Shown here: one piece after another, positions 1 through 5,433 of the stretch
How the letters are laid out: each line of letters begins with the position of its first letter
How positions within the stretch are numbered: position 1 is the first letter of the stretch
Source of the DNA: a virus
Taxonomy: Duplodnaviria; Heunggongvirae; Uroviricota; Caudoviricetes
IMG/VR virus record: IMGVR_UViG_2531839486_000011
Direction: 5' to 3' (one strand)
Length of the DNA stretch: 5,433 nucleotides
Program-made: the position numbers and the translations under genes
Notes under the pieces: generated by a model
Told to the model about the DNA's origin: nothing
The model's database searches: none
What the model saw: only the letters and a program-made list of their open reading frames with translations

Positions 1-324
1 TCCGCTTGTACAACCCGTAACTGCGGCGCGTACAGCAAGTGTTTGTGCGGCAAGTATGCCAAACCAGTCGGCGGCATTCCGCAGCCGCTTCAGGAGAGCC
101 ACGTCAGATAATGTTGCAACGTCATGGAGCTGAGCCCATGCAGTGACTTCACGTAATGACATCCCCCCGGGGCCGTAAGCCAGCCCCAGACGTAGCAGAG
201 TTGCAGCATCACGAATTTCGCGGCGGCGGGTTAGAGCCCCGGCATTACGTGCCGAAGTATCCAGTTCTTCGGGCTTACCAATATGGGCCAGAATTGCTGA
301 CCAGTTATCGTGAGAGTAATTCAT
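1..324 (-). CDS. insL: IS186 transposase InsL, N-terminal 108 codons (gene runs off the left edge)
   Basis: Minus-strand translation from the ATG at 324-322 gives MNYSHDNWSAILAHIGKPEELDTSARNAGALTRRREIRDAATLLRLGLAYGPGGMSLREVTAWAQLHDVATLSDVALLKRLRNAADWFGILAAQTLAVRAAVTGCTSG, matching my recollection of InsL. It is absent from the ORF track because the window edge truncates it. Confidence 0.85.
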   Translation of the reverse strand, partial: MNYSHDNWSAILAHIGKPEELDTSARNAGALTRRREIRDAATLLRLGLAYGPGGMSLREVTAWAQLHDVATLSDVALLKRLRNAADWFGILAAQTLAVRAAVTGCTSG

Positions 325-379
325 CGGCACGTTAAATCATATCAGGCGTAATACCACAACCCTTAAGTTAGCGCTTATG
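1..379 (-). mobile_element. IS186 (IS4 family) insertion sequence, terminal portion; the element continues beyond the window start
   Basis: The reverse complement of 330-379 reads CATAAGCGCTAACTTAAGGGTTGTGGTATTACGCC..., which I recognise as the IS186 terminal inverted repeat. The transposase start lies 55 bp inside the end. Sequence character changes abruptly at 379/380. The other end is off-window, so the target duplication cannot be confirmed. Confidence 0.85.
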
Positions 380-401
380 GGATTCTCCCCCGCCTGGTCT
401 C

Positions 402-557
402 TTACTCCTCAGGTTCGTAAGCTGTGAAGACAGCGACCTCCGTCTGGCCGGTTCGGATTCGTACCTCGCAGAGGTCTTTCCTCGTTACCAGTGCCGTCAC
501 TATGACGGTTAAACAGATGACGATCAGGGCGATTAACATCGCCTTTTGCTGCTTCAT
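402..557 (-). CDS. hokD: Hok/Gef family type I toxin, 51 aa (small membrane-depolarising peptide)
   Basis: The internal ATG at 557-555 of the 70-aa track ORF gives MKQQKAMLIALIVICLTVIVTALVTRKDLCEVRIRTGQTEVAVFTAYEPEE: one hydrophobic helix followed by the conserved TRKDLCE...EVAVF...AYE core of Hok/Gef/RelF. SD AAGGAG lies 9 nt upstream. Assignment to the hokD/relF subtype rather than hokC is from memory and less certain than the family call. Confidence 0.85.
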   Translation of the reverse strand: MKQQKAMLIALIVICLTVIVTALVTRKDLCEVRIRTGQTEVAVFTAYEPEE

Positions 558-614
558 AGCCTGCTTCTCCTTGCCTTTCGGCACGTAAGAGGCTAACCTA
601 GATTTGCCGTTCAT
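402..614 (-). CDS. Mok-like regulatory reading frame (in-frame N-terminal extension of hok, 70 aa)
   Basis: The track ORF 402..614 shares frame and stop with hok and starts 57 nt upstream (ATG at 614-612, SD-like TGAGG upstream). Chromosomal hok loci have such a mok frame that couples hok translation. Whether it is translated here cannot be judged from sequence. Confidence 0.45.
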   Translation of the reverse strand: MNGKSRLASYVPKGKEKQAMKQQKAMLIALIVICLTVIVTALVTRKDLCEVRIRTGQTEVAVFTAYEPEE

Positions 615-660
615 AGATTGAGCCTCAGATTAATGTTAAGCGTCTTGCAGGACGCGTAAT
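606..660 (+). ncRNA. Putative Sok-like antisense RNA opposite the mok start (coordinates approximate, placed by analogy)
   Basis: Hok loci carry a short antisense RNA complementary to the mok translation-initiation region. A possible + strand promoter is TTGCCT (571-576), 17-bp spacer, TAACCT (594-599), which would start transcription near 606. This is positional inference only. Confidence 0.2.
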
Positions 661-1070
661 GTTAACTGGGGCTTTTCTCTATCTGCCTTTGGTGTTCATG
701 CCTGAGACAGATAGCCTCAAGCACCCGCAGCCATTCTACTTAACTCCCGTTACCTCGCCAATATAAAATCAATCAGAAAGGCGATCCATAAGAACAACAG
801 CAAGACAATAAATTGCCATTACAGCTGCAATAGCCAGCGCACATTTGAGAACCAGCACGACAACCTCCTGTATTGGACGTACACCAGTCCTGATAAATAT
901 GAGGCTGTCTCATCATTGATGAGATACAACTATTGGGTATAGTTTCTGTGATTTTGTTCTGTAGAAATGGAACACAACAACCAGTCACCACCAGCACTTC
1001 TTTAAATACGCCAAGTCCGACGCAAGCTAACCTTCTAGTCCGCTTTGAGCGAAAAGCAGACTGTCACGCG

Positions 1071-1175
1071 TTGAAGTTAATTGTATTACTTAGATAAACA
1101 CTATCATTTTCCTGACGTTAAGTTGTATCTTTGATAGGATTAAAAAACGTATAGATAGCTTATGCTACTGAGGGA
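1071..1175 (+). promoter_or_regulatory. AT-rich upstream region of the 1182-1991 gene with Shine-Dalgarno GAGGGA (1170-1175); promoter hexamers not resolved
   Basis: Several sigma70-like hexamers are present (TTGAAG 1071-1076, TTGTAT 1081-1086 and 1123-1128, TTGATA 1131-1136, TATCAT 1102-1107, TATAGA 1150-1155), but no pair has ideal spacing. The SD sits 6-7 nt before the ATG at 1182. Confidence 0.3.
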
Positions 1176-1181
1176 ATAAAA

Positions 1182-1991
1182 ATGACGAAAATTAGTGAAC
1201 GATGGAAGCACAATGGCATTACTGAAGGTTATTGCAATATTTGTGGGAAATATGGCTTTCTCACAAAAGATCATGTTCCTCCAAAGTGCGCCATAACCTT
1301 AGGCCCTGTTTTGCAGAAAACAGTTAGCGAATTTTTTGGTATTCAGGAACCAGTTAAACCATTAAATGCTAAAAATGGCTCTTATTTCAGAACCATTTGC
1401 AGCCACTGTAACAATAAGGTATTAGGTGGGCTCGATGTTGCAATTGAAAATGTAACAAAGTCCTTTAAAGAACAGTTAAGTCGATATATGAATGGTATGA
1501 ATGTATATCCATTCATTAGAATACCTTTTGATAGCATATCTTTCACTAAGGCTATGATTGGGCACGTGCTATCAGCAACTTCAGTTGAAGATTGTAAAAA
1601 AGAACCCGTAGATAGCCCCTTCTATACACCTTTAAAGGATTATGTTTTGGGTAAAAATTCAAGTTTTGAGGAAACTCATGATATTTACTACTGGTTTTAC
1701 CCACACAGAATGCACATATCCGCTCAAAGTGTAGCATTTATGAACGAAGGACATGTGGCATTTATTTGTGCTTTACATTTTTTTCCTATCGGTTTTATTA
1801 TCACAATGAAAAATGAAGGAACATACCCTGCCCACTCTACAAAATTAGAACTTGAAGATAAATTCCTTACATTTAATATGACCTCTATAAATTATGAGTA
1901 TACGACATTTCCATTTGTAAATCTTAAGGGAAACCAAATGTATGCGATAAGCAACGGTCATACTTGTGTGAGTTATCCAATAATTAAGTGA
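1182..1991 (+). CDS. Hypothetical 269-aa protein with N-terminal HNH-like (His-Me finger, zinc-ribbon) nuclease motif; AT-rich, probably horizontally acquired
   Basis: Long ORF with a good RBS. The protein has C18-x2-C21, D31-H32 (TKDHVPPK), Asn candidates at 62/65 and C73-x2-C76-N77 (CSHCNN), the order expected for a zinc-stabilised HNH fold, although the DH to second CxxC spacing (40 aa) is longer than typical. The C-terminal ~190 aa are unrecognised. Hand-sampled G+C is about 35 percent against about 50-55 percent in flanking genes (not computed over the whole gene). Confidence 0.75.
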   Translation: MTKISERWKHNGITEGYCNICGKYGFLTKDHVPPKCAITLGPVLQKTVSEFFGIQEPVKPLNAKNGSYFRTICSHCNNKVLGGLDVAIENVTKSFKEQLSRYMNGMNVYPFIRIPFDSISFTKAMIGHVLSATSVEDCKKEPVDSPFYTPLKDYVLGKNSSFEETHDIYYWFYPHRMHISAQSVAFMNEGHVAFICALHFFPIGFIITMKNEGTYPAHSTKLELEDKFLTFNMTSINYEYTTFPFVNLKGNQMYAISNGHTCVSYPIIK

Positions 1992-2044
1992 CGGCTAAAT
2001 CATACAATCTACGCATGTTCACTTTCTACATATACCATCTATAA

Positions 2045-2070
2045 TGTCCGCTGTTGGCACAAAGCGGACA
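2045..2070. terminator. Stem-loop between convergent genes (8-bp stem TGTCCGCT/AGCGGACA, 10-nt loop); possible weak bidirectional terminator
   Basis: Perfect 8-bp inverted repeat at 2045-2052 and 2063-2070. On the minus-strand transcript it is followed by UUAUAGAU; on the + strand it is not followed by a U-run. It lies between the stop of the + gene (1991) and the stop of the minus gene (2138). Confidence 0.3.
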
Positions 2071-2137
2071 ACCACGCTAGCTCTACCCTGTGCCACAAAA
2101 TGTCAATTTGCATCTGAACTAATGCACTTTAATCTCG

Positions 2138-2560
2138 TCACTTCAATAAATACCGAACATCACCCTGATAAAACGACAATATGCGCTGCATAACTTCACT
2201 CTTCCGGCACTCGCGACAGATTATGTTCTGACGCCTGTCGTAGCGACGTATTTCTCCGTCAGGTAATGACCAGATAAGGTCCGGATCAACCGCAGATGGT
2301 TTCTTCAGCTTTGCCCTTGAGAGCTTTTTACGGGCATTTTGCCAGTCCTTACGCGCCTGTTCAGACGGGAATAACCCGTAACCAGAGTTGTATACATCGC
2401 CGCTGGCAACCAGTTCTCTTGCGAGAACGCTCATCAGATATCTTGTCGCACCTGTCTTGACTTCCAGTTGCCGTAACGTCTCACGCCCACTCTGGCGTAC
2501 GAGTTCAACAACCTGTCCTTTAATTTTTTCCCGCTCTTCTTGTGTAAAAACTTTTGCCAC
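2138..2560 (-). CDS. Hypothetical phage protein, 140 aa, in the position of the second replication gene (helicase-loader slot); GTG start
   Basis: Track ORF 2138..2560. The start codon is GTG (reverse complement of 2558-2560) preceded by a strong SD AGGAGG 4 nt upstream. It is basic and has a C-terminal CRECRK motif. No family recognised; it does not resemble lambda P or DnaC-type loaders. Confidence 0.7.
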   Translation of the reverse strand: MAKVFTQEEREKIKGQVVELVRQSGRETLRQLEVKTGATRYLMSVLARELVASGDVYNSGYGLFPSEQARKDWQNARKKLSRAKLKKPSAVDPDLIWSLPDGEIRRYDRRQNIICRECRKSEVMQRILSFYQGDVRYLLK

Positions 2561-2600
2561 AAGCCCTCCTGAAAATTACCTCATGACCAGAAATTAACAC

Positions 2601-3671
2601 TTACCCCCTGAAGCCCGGCGGAATTTCGTTATCCGGTTCAGAAATATGATTCACACAACGCTGGTTGTTCGTGCCGCTTACCGGGAGCAACCAGGGGTTC
2701 TCAAAATTCCGGTCCGGTCCAAAAAACGTCGTCGCTCGCTGAACAAATTCCGTTCCCGTTTTCCCGGTAGCCGCCAAGTATCTTGCGTAACGCCTCACGC
2801 CATCCAGCATGGCTTCTGGTGGCACCCCCTCGCGTAATCTGGCCTTCCAGGCACTGAAAGCGGATTTCTTCGGGTTTGCTCCGGCACGCAACGGGTACTC
2901 CCGCCAGACCTGTTCGAACACATCCGGATAATCCACTCGTCCCACAGACTGCCCGGTGTTTTCCGGGACTACCCGATCGGCTTCCCGCTGAATGGCGGAA
3001 TCGGCTTCGGGCTGCTGCAGTTGGTGTGATTGCTCCGGCCTTGCGGTCATCACCTGCTGCACAGCGCCCGAATCGGCTTTCAGCGCATACGCTGAATCGG
3101 CTTCCGGTGTCGTGCCTGCTGGCTGACCAAGATTGACGGTCTGAACATCCCCTGCCTGGTTCGTGGCGTTTTTTACGCCATGGACCATAGTGTTTTGATC
3201 TTCTTGATCTGTATCTTTATCTGTATCTTTATCTGTCGTGACTCGTCGTGACATGTGCGTGACATTTCGTGACGCGCCGTGACAATCGCCATTTTGTTCC
3301 CGCTTTCTTTCCCTCTCTCGCTGCGCCCTCTTGCGCTCTGCAGGAGATTTTGCGGTTTGCGAAATATTGCCGTTGTCCTCTTTAAGCACCTGGCGTTTTT
3401 CCCATCCAGTGATTAAATCACCATCAAGTACCCGCCCCTGCATCGTCTGCAAAATTGAATCAATTACCTCTTCTGTCACGTCGAGCGCACTTGCCAAATC
3501 TTCTGTCGTGACATCAATGTGACCTCGCGTGACATTTCGTGACGCGCTCACCAGGAGGTGGATATACACTGCCATCACTGTTGCAATTGGCTGCCCTGAC
3601 ACTCTGGCAATTGTTCGCCACTTAGGGTCATTTGGCATGTCATGCCATAATCTGAGCCAGGCGTTAGCCAT
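2601..3671 (-). CDS. Putative phage replication initiator / replisome organiser (O-like position), about 356 aa
   Basis: Track ORF 2601..3677 begins at a GTG. The ATG two codons in (3671-3669) has a better SD (GAGG about 5 nt upstream), so I place the start at 3671. It is the third gene of the cro-side operon. The coding sequence contains iteron-like phased repeats and encodes a low-complexity acidic linker (TDKDTDKDTDQEDQ) between two domains, as in lambda O with ori inside the gene. Domain identity itself was not recognised with certainty. Confidence 0.7.
   Translation of the reverse strand: MANAWLRLWHDMPNDPKWRTIARVSGQPIATVMAVYIHLLVSASRNVTRGHIDVTTEDLASALDVTEEVIDSILQTMQGRVLDGDLITGWEKRQVLKEDNGNISQTAKSPAERKRAQRERERKREQNGDCHGASRNVTHMSRRVTTDKDTDKDTDQEDQNTMVHGVKNATNQAGDVQTVNLGQPAGTTPEADSAYALKADSGAVQQVMTARPEQSHQLQQPEADSAIQREADRVVPENTGQSVGRVDYPDVFEQVWREYPLRAGANPKKSAFSAWKARLREGVPPEAMLDGVRRYARYLAATGKTGTEFVQRATTFFGPDRNFENPWLLPVSGTNNQRCVNHISEPDNEIPPGFRG
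3207..3284. repeat. Repeat cluster 1 inside the replication gene: 12-bp tandem ATCTGTATCTTT (about 2.5 copies, 3207-3236) followed by five CGTGAC motifs at 10-11 bp phasing (3237, 3247, 3258, 3268, 3278)
   Basis: Read directly from the sequence. Spacings of 10, 11, 10 and 10 bp equal one helical turn. Candidate origin iterons. Confidence 0.5.
3475..3547. repeat. Repeat cluster 2 inside the replication gene: (C/T)GTGAC motifs at 3507, 3518, 3528, 3538 (10-11 bp phasing) plus an inverted copy GTCACG at 3475-3480
   Basis: Read directly from the sequence. Includes a 21-bp exact direct repeat of cluster 1: GCGTGACATTTCGTGACGCGC at 3257-3277 and 3527-3547. Confidence 0.5.
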
Positions 3672-3741
3672 ACTCACCTCTTCTGATACCGAATCTTTTA
3701 CTCACGAGTTGCCGGAAGCGATTCGATATGGCTATTATCAC

Positions 3742-4167
3742 TCAATGCACTGCCACAGCATTTCCTGCCGGGCCACCACGGTTCATCTGATTGAAACCGG
3801 CGATTGCCACTGCGACAAAATCATCAGCGTCTCTCACCAGTCGCTCCCGCGTCTCCACCAGCTCCCGAAAATAAGCTGAACTGTGGCTGCGCATTCTGGC
3901 CACCAGCAAAGGTGGCATTGCCTTTTCGATCGCTGGTAACAACGCCTGAATTTTTTCAACTGCATCAGGGGTGTCTTTCTCTACCCAGCGGAAAATTTTC
4001 TGGGTATTGCGAGCCAGGGCTTCCGGATGGCTGTCGTCATACAGTTCTGGGAACGTCATACCCAGTTCAAAATAAGCCCTGGTTATTTCAGCTGCCGGAA
4101 CTTTTTCACCGTCCGGATGCGCCCAGGCATTCATCGCCATGCGGATGTGTTCATGCTTGATTTTCAT
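3742..4167 (-). CDS. ydaT: YdaT-like protein (CII-position protein / toxic component of the Rac-type YdaS-YdaT module), 141 aa
   Basis: Track ORF with ATG at 4167-4165 and SD AGGAG 8 nt upstream. The N-terminus MKIKHEHIR and the size match my recollection of Rac YdaT. It is the second gene after the Cro-like gene and overlaps its stop by 17 nt. Confidence 0.7.
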   Translation of the reverse strand: MKIKHEHIRMAMNAWAHPDGEKVPAAEITRAYFELGMTFPELYDDSHPEALARNTQKIFRWVEKDTPDAVEKIQALLPAIEKAMPPLLVARMRSHSSAYFRELVETRERLVRDADDFVAVAIAGFNQMNRGGPAGNAVAVH

Positions 4168-4432
4168 GAATCAAGCTCCTAGAAAGTGGTTGTGTTAACG
4201 TTTTGGTATCTTCCAGCTCGGGCCAAATATTCATCCAATCAAAAGGCCTTAGTTGCTGACGTGTAACTTCACCATTACTGGCTCGCTCAATAAGGACACA
4301 TAACGATGCCCCTAACACTTGACCTTTACTCAATGCCTTTCTTAGATAACCGATGCTGGTACCACACTCGCATGCAAACATACGCTGTTCATCTGACGAA
4401 AGAGAATTGAGAAATATTCTTAATTCTTCCAT
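4151..4432 (-). CDS. ydaS: Cro/YdaS-like small DNA-binding protein, 93 aa
   Basis: Track ORF with ATG at 4432-4430 and SD AAGGAG 6 nt upstream. It is the first gene of the operon divergent from the repressor. The motif ...IERASNGEVTRQQLRPFDW...WPEL resembles the YdaS/Cro-like family (recalled, not searched). Confidence 0.7.
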   Translation of the reverse strand: MEELRIFLNSLSSDEQRMFACECGTSIGYLRKALSKGQVLGASLCVLIERASNGEVTRQQLRPFDWMNIWPELEDTKTLTQPLSRSLIHENQA

Positions 4433-4532
4433 AGCTACTCCTTAGTAAACACAGTAAAGAATACCCACAGGTAAACAAAAGTCAATACCCACAGGTTGTT
4501 TACCTTGCGGTAATCGCATCTATTATTTACCT
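4433..4532. promoter_or_regulatory. Divergent promoter/operator region between the Cro-like gene and the repressor gene, with two operator-like sites TACCCACAGGTA (4462-4473) and TACCCACAGGTT (4486-4497)
   Basis: Minus-strand candidate promoter: -35 TTGACT (4485-4480), 16-bp spacer, -10 TATTCT (4463-4458). Plus-strand candidate: -10 TATTAT (4521-4526) placing +1 at about the repressor ATG (4533), with no SD, so a leaderless mRNA as for lambda cI from PRM; its -35 is weak. The two sites are 24 bp apart and overlap the promoter elements. Confidence 0.45.
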
Positions 4533-4952
4533 ATGGACAAATATGAATTTAGACGACAGCAACTCATCAAAATTCGTGATGAGAAATGCGATGGTAAAGC
4601 GGTTAACGTGGCCAGAAAGATCGGGCGCGAGCCTTCTTATGTATCAAGAATGTTGTACCCAGAGGGGAAAAAGGGAAAAAAACGGATCGCTGATGATATG
4701 GTGGAGATTATCGAAGAGTCCTTTGGGTTACCCCGGGGATGGATGGATGGTATCGTTTCATCATCAACGAACACAGCCTCCAGTTATGAAACAAGGGTTC
4801 TAACGCCACGACAACGTATTTTTTTAGATCTCTTAGACGAACTGCCAGAAAGTGAAGCGGATAACTTATTAAAAACTCTTGAAGAGAAAAAACAGTATTA
4901 CAATATGATCTACGAAGAAATCCGTAAAAAGAAAGCACAAAACGCATCATAG
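4533..4952 (+). CDS. Prophage repressor-like HTH DNA-binding protein, 139 aa (cI/RacR functional position)
   Basis: Track ORF with ATG at 4533 and no SD (consistent with a leaderless transcript). Probable helix-turn-helix around GKAVNVARKIGREPSYVSRML. It is divergent from the Cro-like operon. No peptidase S24 motif was recognised. Confidence 0.7.
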   Translation: MDKYEFRRQQLIKIRDEKCDGKAVNVARKIGREPSYVSRMLYPEGKKGKKRIADDMVEIIEESFGLPRGWMDGIVSSSTNTASSYETRVLTPRQRIFLDLLDELPESEADNLLKTLEEKKQYYNMIYEEIRKKKAQNAS

Positions 4953-4994
4953 CTCACCAAACAACTAGTCACCAGTTAAGACACCGCAAAAAGT

Positions 4995-5035
4995 TACCCA
5001 TGGGTATTTACTTTTTAAATACCTATGGGTATCCT
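4995..5035 (+). promoter_or_regulatory. OL/PL-like region: perfect 12-bp palindrome TACCCATGGGTA (4995-5006) and near-copy TACCTATGGGTA (5020-5031) flanking a candidate promoter (-35 TTTACT 5007-5012, -10 TATCCT 5030-5035)
   Basis: Palindromes read directly from the sequence. They share the TACCCA...GGTA half-sites of the two sites in the divergent region, with a similar 25-bp centre spacing. Located downstream of the repressor gene and upstream of the small + strand genes. Confidence 0.45.
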
Positions 5036-5217
5036 TCTTTTCATACCAACCCACCCCGCCCCACAGAATGCAGGGCAATACTTCGAGTTACCAGGCAGTG
5101 GTCAGGGGTTAAGTAGCCAGCCCGAGGCGTAAGAACATGACGGCAGGGTTCAACTTTAATAACTATGCAGCAGGTTTTTGTTCCGCTACCCCGGCGTTAA
5201 GGGGAAATGAGGTCAGC

Positions 5218-5373
5218 ATGGATACTATCGATCTTGGCAACAGCGAATCTCTGGTATGTGGCGTGTTCCCCAACCAGGACGGTACGTTCACCGCGATGAC
5301 GTATACCAAAAGCAAAACGTTTAAAACCGAAAATGGTGCCCGTCGCTGGCTGGAAAGAAACTCAGGTGAGTGA
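5218..5373 (+). CDS. Small prophage protein, 51 aa, YdfA/YdaF-like (DUF1391-like); alternative upstream start at 5137 gives 78 aa
   Basis: The track ORF is 5137..5373. The internal ATG at 5218 has a better SD (GAGGT 5-6 nt upstream) and gives MDTIDLGNSESLVCGVFPNQDGTFTAMTYTKSKTFKTENGARRWLERNSGE, the size and sequence type I recall for the small proteins next to Rac/Qin repressors. Confidence 0.6.
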   Translation: MDTIDLGNSESLVCGVFPNQDGTFTAMTYTKSKTFKTENGARRWLERNSGE

Positions 5374-5374
5374 T

Positions 5375-5433
5375 ATGGATTTCGACACAATCATGGAAAA
5401 GGCTTACGAAGAATACTTCGAAGGTCTTGCCGA
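5375..5433 (+). CDS. Small hypothetical protein, 5' end only (MDFDTIMEKAYEEYFEGLA...), continues beyond the window
   Basis: ATG at 5375 lies 1 nt after the upstream stop codon (5371-5373), with SD-like GGTGAG at 5365-5370, suggesting translational coupling. It is not in the ORF track because no stop falls within the window. Confidence 0.45.
   Translation, partial: MDFDTIMEKAYEEYFEGLA

Follow-up and report, generated by a model that had tools for sequence, protein, structure and literature searches.

Why does a prophage carry hokD when neither relB nor relE, which lie directly upstream of that toxin gene in the relBEF operon of Escherichia coli K-12, is beside it? The question was raised by a 5,433-nt stretch of viral DNA (Caudoviricetes; IMG/VR record IMGVR_UViG_2531839486_000011), referred to as a whole as the window, which was mapped from an open reading frame (ORF) listing, family scans and whole-window BLAST. 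A first-pass annotation had read the stretch as a product of cassette reshuffling between cryptic prophages, in which a hokD-type toxin without relBE came to stand beside a Rac-type module. Our analysis makes it probable that the window comes from the early-right part of a Qin-family lambdoid prophage, that the relBE-hokD state of K-12 is the derived one and that hokD in the window has been disabled by the insertion sequence (IS) IS186.

The toxin gene was found to belong to a hok/sok locus with the following parts.

402–557, minus strand: hokD, encoding a 51-aa Hok/Gef membrane toxin (Pfam HOK_GEF, 81.6 bits)
402–614, minus strand: mokD, a 70-aa in-frame 5′ extension of hokD (its ATG at 614 coincides in the alignment with the annotated K-12 mokC start)
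552–726, minus strand: hok mRNA 5′ leader (Rfam RF01794, full-length match 1–157, 110 bits where the gathering score is 59, E = 3.4e-25)
About 606–682, plus strand: sokD, antisense RNA antitoxin (coordinates inferred by homology from annotated K-12 sokC and sokE)
733–761, minus strand: putative hok promoter, TTGGCG-17 nt-TAGAAT (consensus scan)

HokD was identical to K-12 HokD (RelF) at 51/51 residues, with 99% DNA identity over 379–571, which bears out the hokD subtype assigned at first pass. Both a leader with a mok frame and an antisense Sok gene, as in the plasmid R1 paradigm, are present, and mokD would serve as the translational coupler of hokD. The transcript start predicted from the putative promoter, at about 726, coincides with the start of the Rfam match, and the 5′ tac element TGCGGGTGC (729–721, minus strand) reaches 3 nt 5′ of that match. 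When folded, the 604–690 region forms a long hairpin that runs into a U-rich tail (−34 kcal/mol, z = −5.15).

The absence of relBE, also reported at first pass, was upheld. Permissive tblastn with K-12 RelB and RelE gave best E values of 2.2–2.5 across the whole window, which is chance level, leaving no coding remnant of either protein, and the same search with K-12 YdfV and FlxA returned chance-level matches only (E of 0.05 or worse). When the K-12 DNA from relE to flxA was searched by blastn-short, matches other than the 14 nt adjacent to hokD were at most 24 nt long, and none in 615–1180 rose above chance. The K-12 arrangement, with relB and relE directly upstream of hokD, was not found. 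In an alignment of the window, an IS-free allele and K-12, the point at which K-12 similarity begins, AGGAGAAGCAGGCT, lies 14 nt before the hokD ATG; further upstream K-12 continues into the 3′ end of relE, and the hok leader region of the window is absent from K-12 Qin.

The two states were then counted in 5,426 complete E. coli genomes, a junction being scored if at least 80% covered. The junction of hokD with its native leader was present in 4,022 of these, a number that takes in matches down to about 88% identity and may include hokD-like loci of other prophages or plasmids, compared to 1,165 genomes with the K-12 relE-hokD junction; the native-leader state is thus about 3.5 times commoner. 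Because the leader of the window is complete, K-12 similarity stops at relE and the genome counts are 4,022 versus 1,165, K-12 represents a rearranged minority state. It is K-12 that departs from the common, complete form, in which hokD has no relBE. We propose that in the K-12 lineage the rearrangement that brought relBE beside hokD would have removed the hok promoter, mokD and sokD, which would make hokD with relBE derived. Cassette exchange as proposed at first pass is therefore real, with breakpoints that could be defined (below), whereas its polarity is inverted: it is K-12 that is rearranged, and the window is not a derivative that lost relBE. Published summaries of Pedersen & Gerdes 1999 attribute the inactivation of K-12 hokD to a genetic rearrangement and that of K-12 hokA, hokC and hokE to insertion elements (PMC7232551, PMC12214031).

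A further observation was made in E2865, which has a relBE-bearing Qin-type prophage. There the relE-relB-ydfV-flxA-IS3-ydfW-ISEsa1 segment lies between 16-nt direct repeats, ATAGCCTGCTTCTCCT, at 7075–7090 and 11704–11732 of the E2865 record. The repeat is the ribosome-binding-site region of hokD, and its distal copy is fused to the 3′ end of the DUF977 gene via a TT(T/C)CGGCAC microhomology (window 576–584 versus 2205–2213). This looks like the scar of the rearrangement behind the K-12 arrangement.

The actual disruption in the window, unmentioned at first pass, lies 3′ of hokD.

1–378, minus strand: left end of IS186/IS421 (transposase N-terminus and terminal inverted repeat)
379–389: target-site copy GGGATTCTCCC, a hotspot for IS186 insertion that begins 12 bp after the stop codon of hokD

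Transposase codons 1–108 run from 324 down to 1, and the terminal inverted repeat ends ...GCGCTTAT at 378, the terminal sequence being identical to that of K-12 IS186A and IS186B. All IS-free genomes start matching the window at 379, and the empty target site in E. coli fS25a reads GGCGAGGGATTCTCCCCCGCC. In F1005 the 11-bp GGGATTCTCCC stands on both flanks of the IS as a clean target duplication, and an IS4-like IS421 transposase is annotated at the hokD junction in F1005 and seven other chromosomes. The hallmarks of IS186/IS421, namely the terminal inverted repeat, the transposase and a 10–13-bp G/C-flanked target duplication, were all found, the window itself holding one end only. Coverage of the IS-hokD junction sequence (300–470) was at least 80% in 940 genomes, among them seven complete chromosomes with an identity of at least 98.8%; further chromosomes matched at about 96% and many plasmids at about 95%. 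Four-way alignment set the K-12 ends annotated for IS186A (at hokC) and IS186B (at hokE) in the column of the window junction, with a conserved GCGGGG..ATCCC target, the insertion lying 12–19 nt past the hok stop by choice of IS boundary. The affected locus in the window differs from these in being hokD within a prophage; K-12 hokD is disabled otherwise, by the relBE rearrangement.

The position of the insertion bears directly on the hok transcript. In the IS-free fS25a allele, GCACCCGCA (hok strand) occurs 56–64 nt 3′ of the hokD stop, and because it is a perfect complement of TGCGGGTGC the two are the expected fbi/tac pair. This complement is situated beyond the IS186 insertion point, and IS186 parts fbi from tac; the contiguous 3′ fbi of the plasmid R1 paradigm is missing from the window, where IS186 intervenes 12 nt past the hokD stop. 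In the R1 hok/sok model, fbi–tac pairing holds the full-length mRNA inert and stable. Insertion of IS186 into this G/C-flanked target would, we propose, have pushed fbi about 1.3 kb from the body of the transcript. Without an adjacent fbi, the stable, inert pool of full-length hok mRNA could not form; because IS186 splits fbi from tac, this reservoir would be lost under the R1 model. The locus would then be disabled as a post-segregational killer, with sokD keeping it harmless.

Codon 47 of hokD (416–419, minus strand), near the C terminus of HokD, is a Tyr TAC in TACG context. It corresponds to a site of TadA-dependent A-to-I editing (Tyr to Cys) reported in K-12 hokC, hokD and hokE transcripts (PMC12214031). 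Two small ORFs near the hok promoter were considered and set aside. A 29-codon hydrophobic ORF (MLVLKCALAIAAVMAIYCLAVVLMDRLSD) at 771–860 (minus strand), just upstream of the promoter and with an AGGAGG 5′ of it, was examined as a possible second small toxin. It had no family match in PHROG and NCBIfam searches, and it is probably not a conserved gene because loci with QueH in the slot described below lose similarity at 791, inside the ORF. A 74-aa ORF at 773–997 was dropped as having no support.

The remainder of the window was assigned to a Qin-family backbone. K-12 Qin DNA matches are confined to 379–571 and 5180–5433, the latter with 96% identity. The fS25a copy of the segment is part of an intact-looking lambdoid prophage at the site ompW, with int-xis-exo-ydfD-dicB-ydfC-ydfB-ydfA on the ydfA flank and hokD, a hypothetical gene, DUF968, RusA, Q, lysis, terminase and head genes on the hokD flank. 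This ydfA-to-hokD gene order therefore points to a Qin-family backbone. Between the two ends lie the following features, listed from ydfA toward hokD.

5218–5373, plus strand: ydfA (Pfam DUF1391; RefSeq annotation in fS25a)
4990–5036: OL-like palindromic operator pair of TACCCATGGGTA type (repeat search)
4533–4952, plus strand: CI-like repressor gene, 139 aa (phrog_5736, E = 4.4e-70)
4459–4536: OR-like operator cluster separating the cro-like gene from the cI-like gene, with repeated sites of (A)ATACCCACAGGT type (repeat search)
4151–4432, minus strand: Cro-like regulator gene (phrog_35; YdaS_toxin 25.8 bits, under the cut-off of 30)
3742–4167, minus strand: YdaT-family/CII-like regulator gene (Pfam YdaT_toxin 39.6 bits, cut-off 21; phrog_163)
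2601–3671, minus strand: lambda O-like replication initiator, or 'replisome organizer' (phrog_3729, E = 5.5e-258; RefSeq annotation in F1005)
2138–2560, minus strand: DUF977/Ren-like exclusion protein gene (Pfam DUF977, 104 bits; phrog_142)
1062–2042: exchangeable single-gene 'moron' cassette carrying orf269 (breakpoints against F1005, Tritos, CH4796 and 47-1826)
1182–1991, plus strand: orf269 (WP_000161640.1), 269 aa (phrog_21495, annotated as function unknown, E = 3.5e-195)

ydfA is the leading gene of the Qin-type leftward operon, ydfB starting at 5375. Read leftward, the order runs from the start of the ydfA operon through the cI-like gene, operators, and the Cro-like, YdaT/CII-like, O-like and DUF977 (Ren-like) genes to a hypervariable cargo slot and the complete type I toxin–antitoxin locus hokD/mokD/sokD. 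The backbone is homologous to that of K-12 Qin, and the differing immunity and replication allele reflects normal lambdoid modular exchange. The order is common to the window and to K-12 Qin (ydfA-ydfB-ydfC-dicF-dicB operon and hokD-rem-ydfU-Q region), with DNA identities of 96% for ydfA and 99% for hokD, whereas the immunity and replication alleles share only about 30% protein identity. Both the replication genes and the hok leader have gone from K-12 Qin, whose slot is filled by flxA-ydfV-relBE, where the window has orf269, together with IS186. Nothing in this context is out of the ordinary for a lambdoid prophage, and many sequenced genomes and an isolated phage already show the arrangement. 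The sequenced temperate phage Tritos (OV696610.1) encodes YdaT-like, O-like and DUF977 proteins 98–99% identical to those of the window and an identical HokD, and its slot has the same boundaries (1061 and 2043). It differs in its repressor (39% identical), its unrelated Cro gene (Tritos 7581–8334 versus window 4151–4952), the 444-aa hypothetical gene in its slot and the absence of IS186. Immunity genes thus swap independently of the adjoining replication genes.

Operator repeats of TACCCAnnGGTA type, with the form (A)TACC(C/T)AnnGGTA, were located on both flanks of the repressor gene; a weak Rfam 'mir-2041' match at 4995–5031 was rejected as simply the operator palindrome. The repeat search also detected internal GTGAC-type repeats of the O-like gene at 3245–3283 and 3505–3543. 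Together with three tandem 12-nt repeats, TCTT(G/T)ATCTGT(A/C), these two clusters lie inside the gene (window 3202–3283 and 3505–3543), a placement reminiscent of the iterons of the origin in lambda O.

The slot between the DUF977 gene and hokD was defined by comparison with seven loci. Against F1005 and Tritos, the cassette breakpoints fell at 1061/1062 and 2042/2043, and the GC content of the cassette (32–37%) was lower than that of its flanks (45–58%). The boundary on the DUF977 side was sharp, at 2039–2043 in four loci, and that on the hokD side variable, from 791 to 1061. The contents of the slot were as follows.

orf269: 80 genomes
DUF5677 gene and a hypothetical gene: F1005
444-aa hypothetical gene: phage Tritos
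QueH: many strains, O157:H7 and HUSEC2011 included
Two small hypothetical genes: CH4796
Deletion (empty slot): E. coli B
ydfW-flxA-ydfV-relBE: E2865 and K-12

The slot is a recombination hotspot with at least six alternative contents, of which relBE is simply one cargo.

These comparisons allowed the other origins of the arrangement to be weighed. The reading closest to that of the first-pass annotation, in which a Qin-like element acquired a Rac-type immunity/replication module by recombination, losing relBE as it did so and gaining an HNH gene in its place, is highly improbable. The cassette at 1062–2042 is real, as this reading would have it, yet no trace of relBE accompanies it, an intact hok leader occupies the place relBE would have taken, and the relBE-free state is that of the majority. 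The YdaT-like protein scores above the YdaT_toxin threshold and is 33% identical to Rac YdaT over its full length, but Qin YdfX, at 37%, is as close; K-12 Qin YdfX and DicC also weakly match YdaT and YdaS. The Cro-like protein shares 37% identity with Rac YdaS over 54 residues, and Rac YdaS itself scores 107.7 bits against the YdaS family. Rac (racR-ydaS-ydaT-ydaU-ydaV-ydaW) resembles the window in having a YdaT-family gene, a repressor/cro pair in divergent orientation with replication genes after it and, beyond the repressor, a DUF1391 gene (77% protein identity), whereas its repressor is unrelated: no RacR-like repressor was detected by tblastn against Rac at E < 1e-3. Rac DNA matched 2100–5000 in a single 30-nt stretch. 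Within the Pfam set of the Rac module, comprising YdaS (PF15943), YdaT (PF06254), DUF1376 (YdaU), IstB-like/DnaC-like (YdaV) and DUF1627 (YdaW), YdaT alone scored above threshold in the window (1/5). The YdaU, YdaV and YdaW families were absent by Pfam, the O-like protein had no Pfam match and only 19 C-terminal residues in common with YdaU, and no DnaC-like gene was present. An equation of DUF977 with Rac YdaW was considered and ruled out, YdaW being DUF1627. YdaT-family and DUF977 genes are instead native to Qin-type prophages: those of the E. coli B strain C3029 and of E2865, which are less decayed than that of K-12, carry in this order a helix-turn-helix repressor, Cro, YdaT-family, O-like and DUF977 genes and hokD, and the DUF977 protein of E2865 is 93% identical to that of the window over the first 121 of 140 residues. 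The module is therefore not a Rac import; it shows the fine-grained swapping of immunity alleles that is usual among elements with a common backbone, and the label Rac-type overstates the resemblance. In the description of the module as YdaS/YdaT rather than DicA type, YdaT stood; YdaS did not, and the C-terminal 47 residues of the repressor proved DicA-like (32% identity to DicA; NCBIfam DicA subfamily, E = 2.8e-5).

Two further readings concern the IS. An assembly chimera or one-off artefact, such as an IS misjoined to a prophage, would fit the finding that no E. coli collection record covers 1–5433 at 100%, the best full-span match reaching 82% coverage. It is nevertheless extremely unlikely, as 379–5433 is 100% identical to two independent complete E. 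coli chromosomes, fS25a among them, the IS-hokD junction recurs in seven complete chromosomes and F1005 shows a clean target duplication. Somewhat less remote, though still unlikely, is a functionally neutral IS186, with hokD a working toxin–antitoxin or phage-exclusion module whose transcript ends or is processed in the IS end and for which sokD regulation is enough. The IS indeed leaves the coding sequence untouched, and the promoter, mokD and sokD are intact, as is the hokD ORF, but the fbi complement lies beyond the insertion point, and in the literature an IS at the corresponding position of hokA, hokC or hokE counts as inactivating (PMC7232551, PMC12214031). Set against our preferred reading, of a Qin-family region with a derived K-12 state and an IS186-disabled hokD, are several points. 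The inability of the IS186 allele to build an mRNA reservoir for post-segregational killing is a prediction from the R1 hok/sok model. The window stops short of the far side of the IS, where fbi is assumed to lie on the strength of F1005. No sokD promoter was detected by the consensus scan. The polarity, with leader loss in the K-12 lineage, follows from parsimony and locus completeness rather than from a dated phylogeny, and the native-leader count has the breadth described above.

The cargo of the window, orf269, was compared with its relatives. The first-pass annotation had placed an HNH-like gene in the exchanged segment; the segment held, and the HNH assignment was reduced to a conserved motif without statistical significance. 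No match to orf269 was obtained in Pfam or NCBIfam, PADLOC gave no family at E ≤ 0.1, and a literature search found no mention of the accession WP_000161640. Its 92 homologs, mostly 268–280 aa, come from Enterobacterales, Vibrio, Pseudomonas and others in Gammaproteobacteria, where source names are 'chaperonin' or 'metal-binding protein'. The family loci compared were those at 1182–1991 in the window, 4088–4897 in L007 and 5145–5954 in L009, and those in L014, L016 and L018. The family has an invariant CxxC...DHVPP...CxxCN motif, and its invariant residues include C21, D30-H31-V32-P33-P34, C73, C76, N77, D85 and H128. A confident AlphaFold2 model (pLDDT 92.7, pTM 0.92) found no counterpart in Foldseek searches of the PDB and BFVD (full model, best E = 0.057, TM-scores at most 0.15), nor did a profile search of PDB sequences return a match.

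The motif itself, CxxC ... DH(V)PP(K) ... CxxCN, recalls HNH/His-Me finger nucleases. A sub-threshold match to Pfam HNH_5 was seen in 33/44 homologs (best E = 0.0023), and the motif aligned residue for residue with the CxxC...DHIIPK of a phage HNH endonuclease, with an hhalign probability of 1.3%; Hpy99I appeared in Foldseek only at E = 5, which is not significant. Unlike these nucleases, orf269 has about 41 residues inserted between DH and the second CxxC and a 170-residue beta-rich C-terminal domain that has no known counterpart. Re-prediction of the N-terminal 108 residues by themselves, meant to bring out a small HNH fold, yielded a poor model (pLDDT 68.7), for which Foldseek returned zinc-finger noise alone. 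'HNH-like' thus describes orf269 at the level of a motif only.

The genomic settings of orf269 were diverse. The cassette DNA is about 95% identical in the P2-like phage pro147 and 99% identical on plasmid pYS2250-1, and a protein identical to orf269 is encoded beside IS26 on a tet(A) resistance plasmid. In pro147 the cassette lies between the tail sheath and tail-fiber assembly genes, a position that, from P2 gene order, is presumably the Z/fun locus. The Z/fun locus and a tail-gene site are hotspots for defense and accessory genes in P2 (PMC13586616). Among distant homologs, Vibrio has the gene immediately 3′ of an inovirus-type (filamentous) prophage, Plesiomonas has it in an island that also carries HEPN_AbiU2 and a Shedu-type (SduA_C) gene, and Pseudomonas has it in an island bounded by a recombinase. 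From these settings, a defense or exclusion role is a reasonable hypothesis and orf269 may be regarded as a candidate defense gene; the more specific proposal, that it is an uncharacterized single-gene anti-phage or exclusion nuclease in a self-contained cassette moving among cargo hotspots of unrelated mobile elements, is tentative and perhaps doubtful.

Taken as lambdoid mosaicism the window is routine, and its main value is corrective. The relBE-hokD arrangement of K-12, often used as the reference, is a minority, rearranged state, and the full hokD/mokD/sokD locus is the common form. A sharply bounded cargo slot of Qin-type prophages is now defined, and one of its occupants, orf269, belongs to a widespread family with a confident but unmatched predicted fold that is a reasonable candidate for phage defense. 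The IS186 insertion adds a further independent case of this element at the same nucleotide 3′ of a hok gene, which supports the view of a conserved G/C-flanked sequence downstream of hok genes as a hotspot through which IS186 repeatedly disables these toxins.

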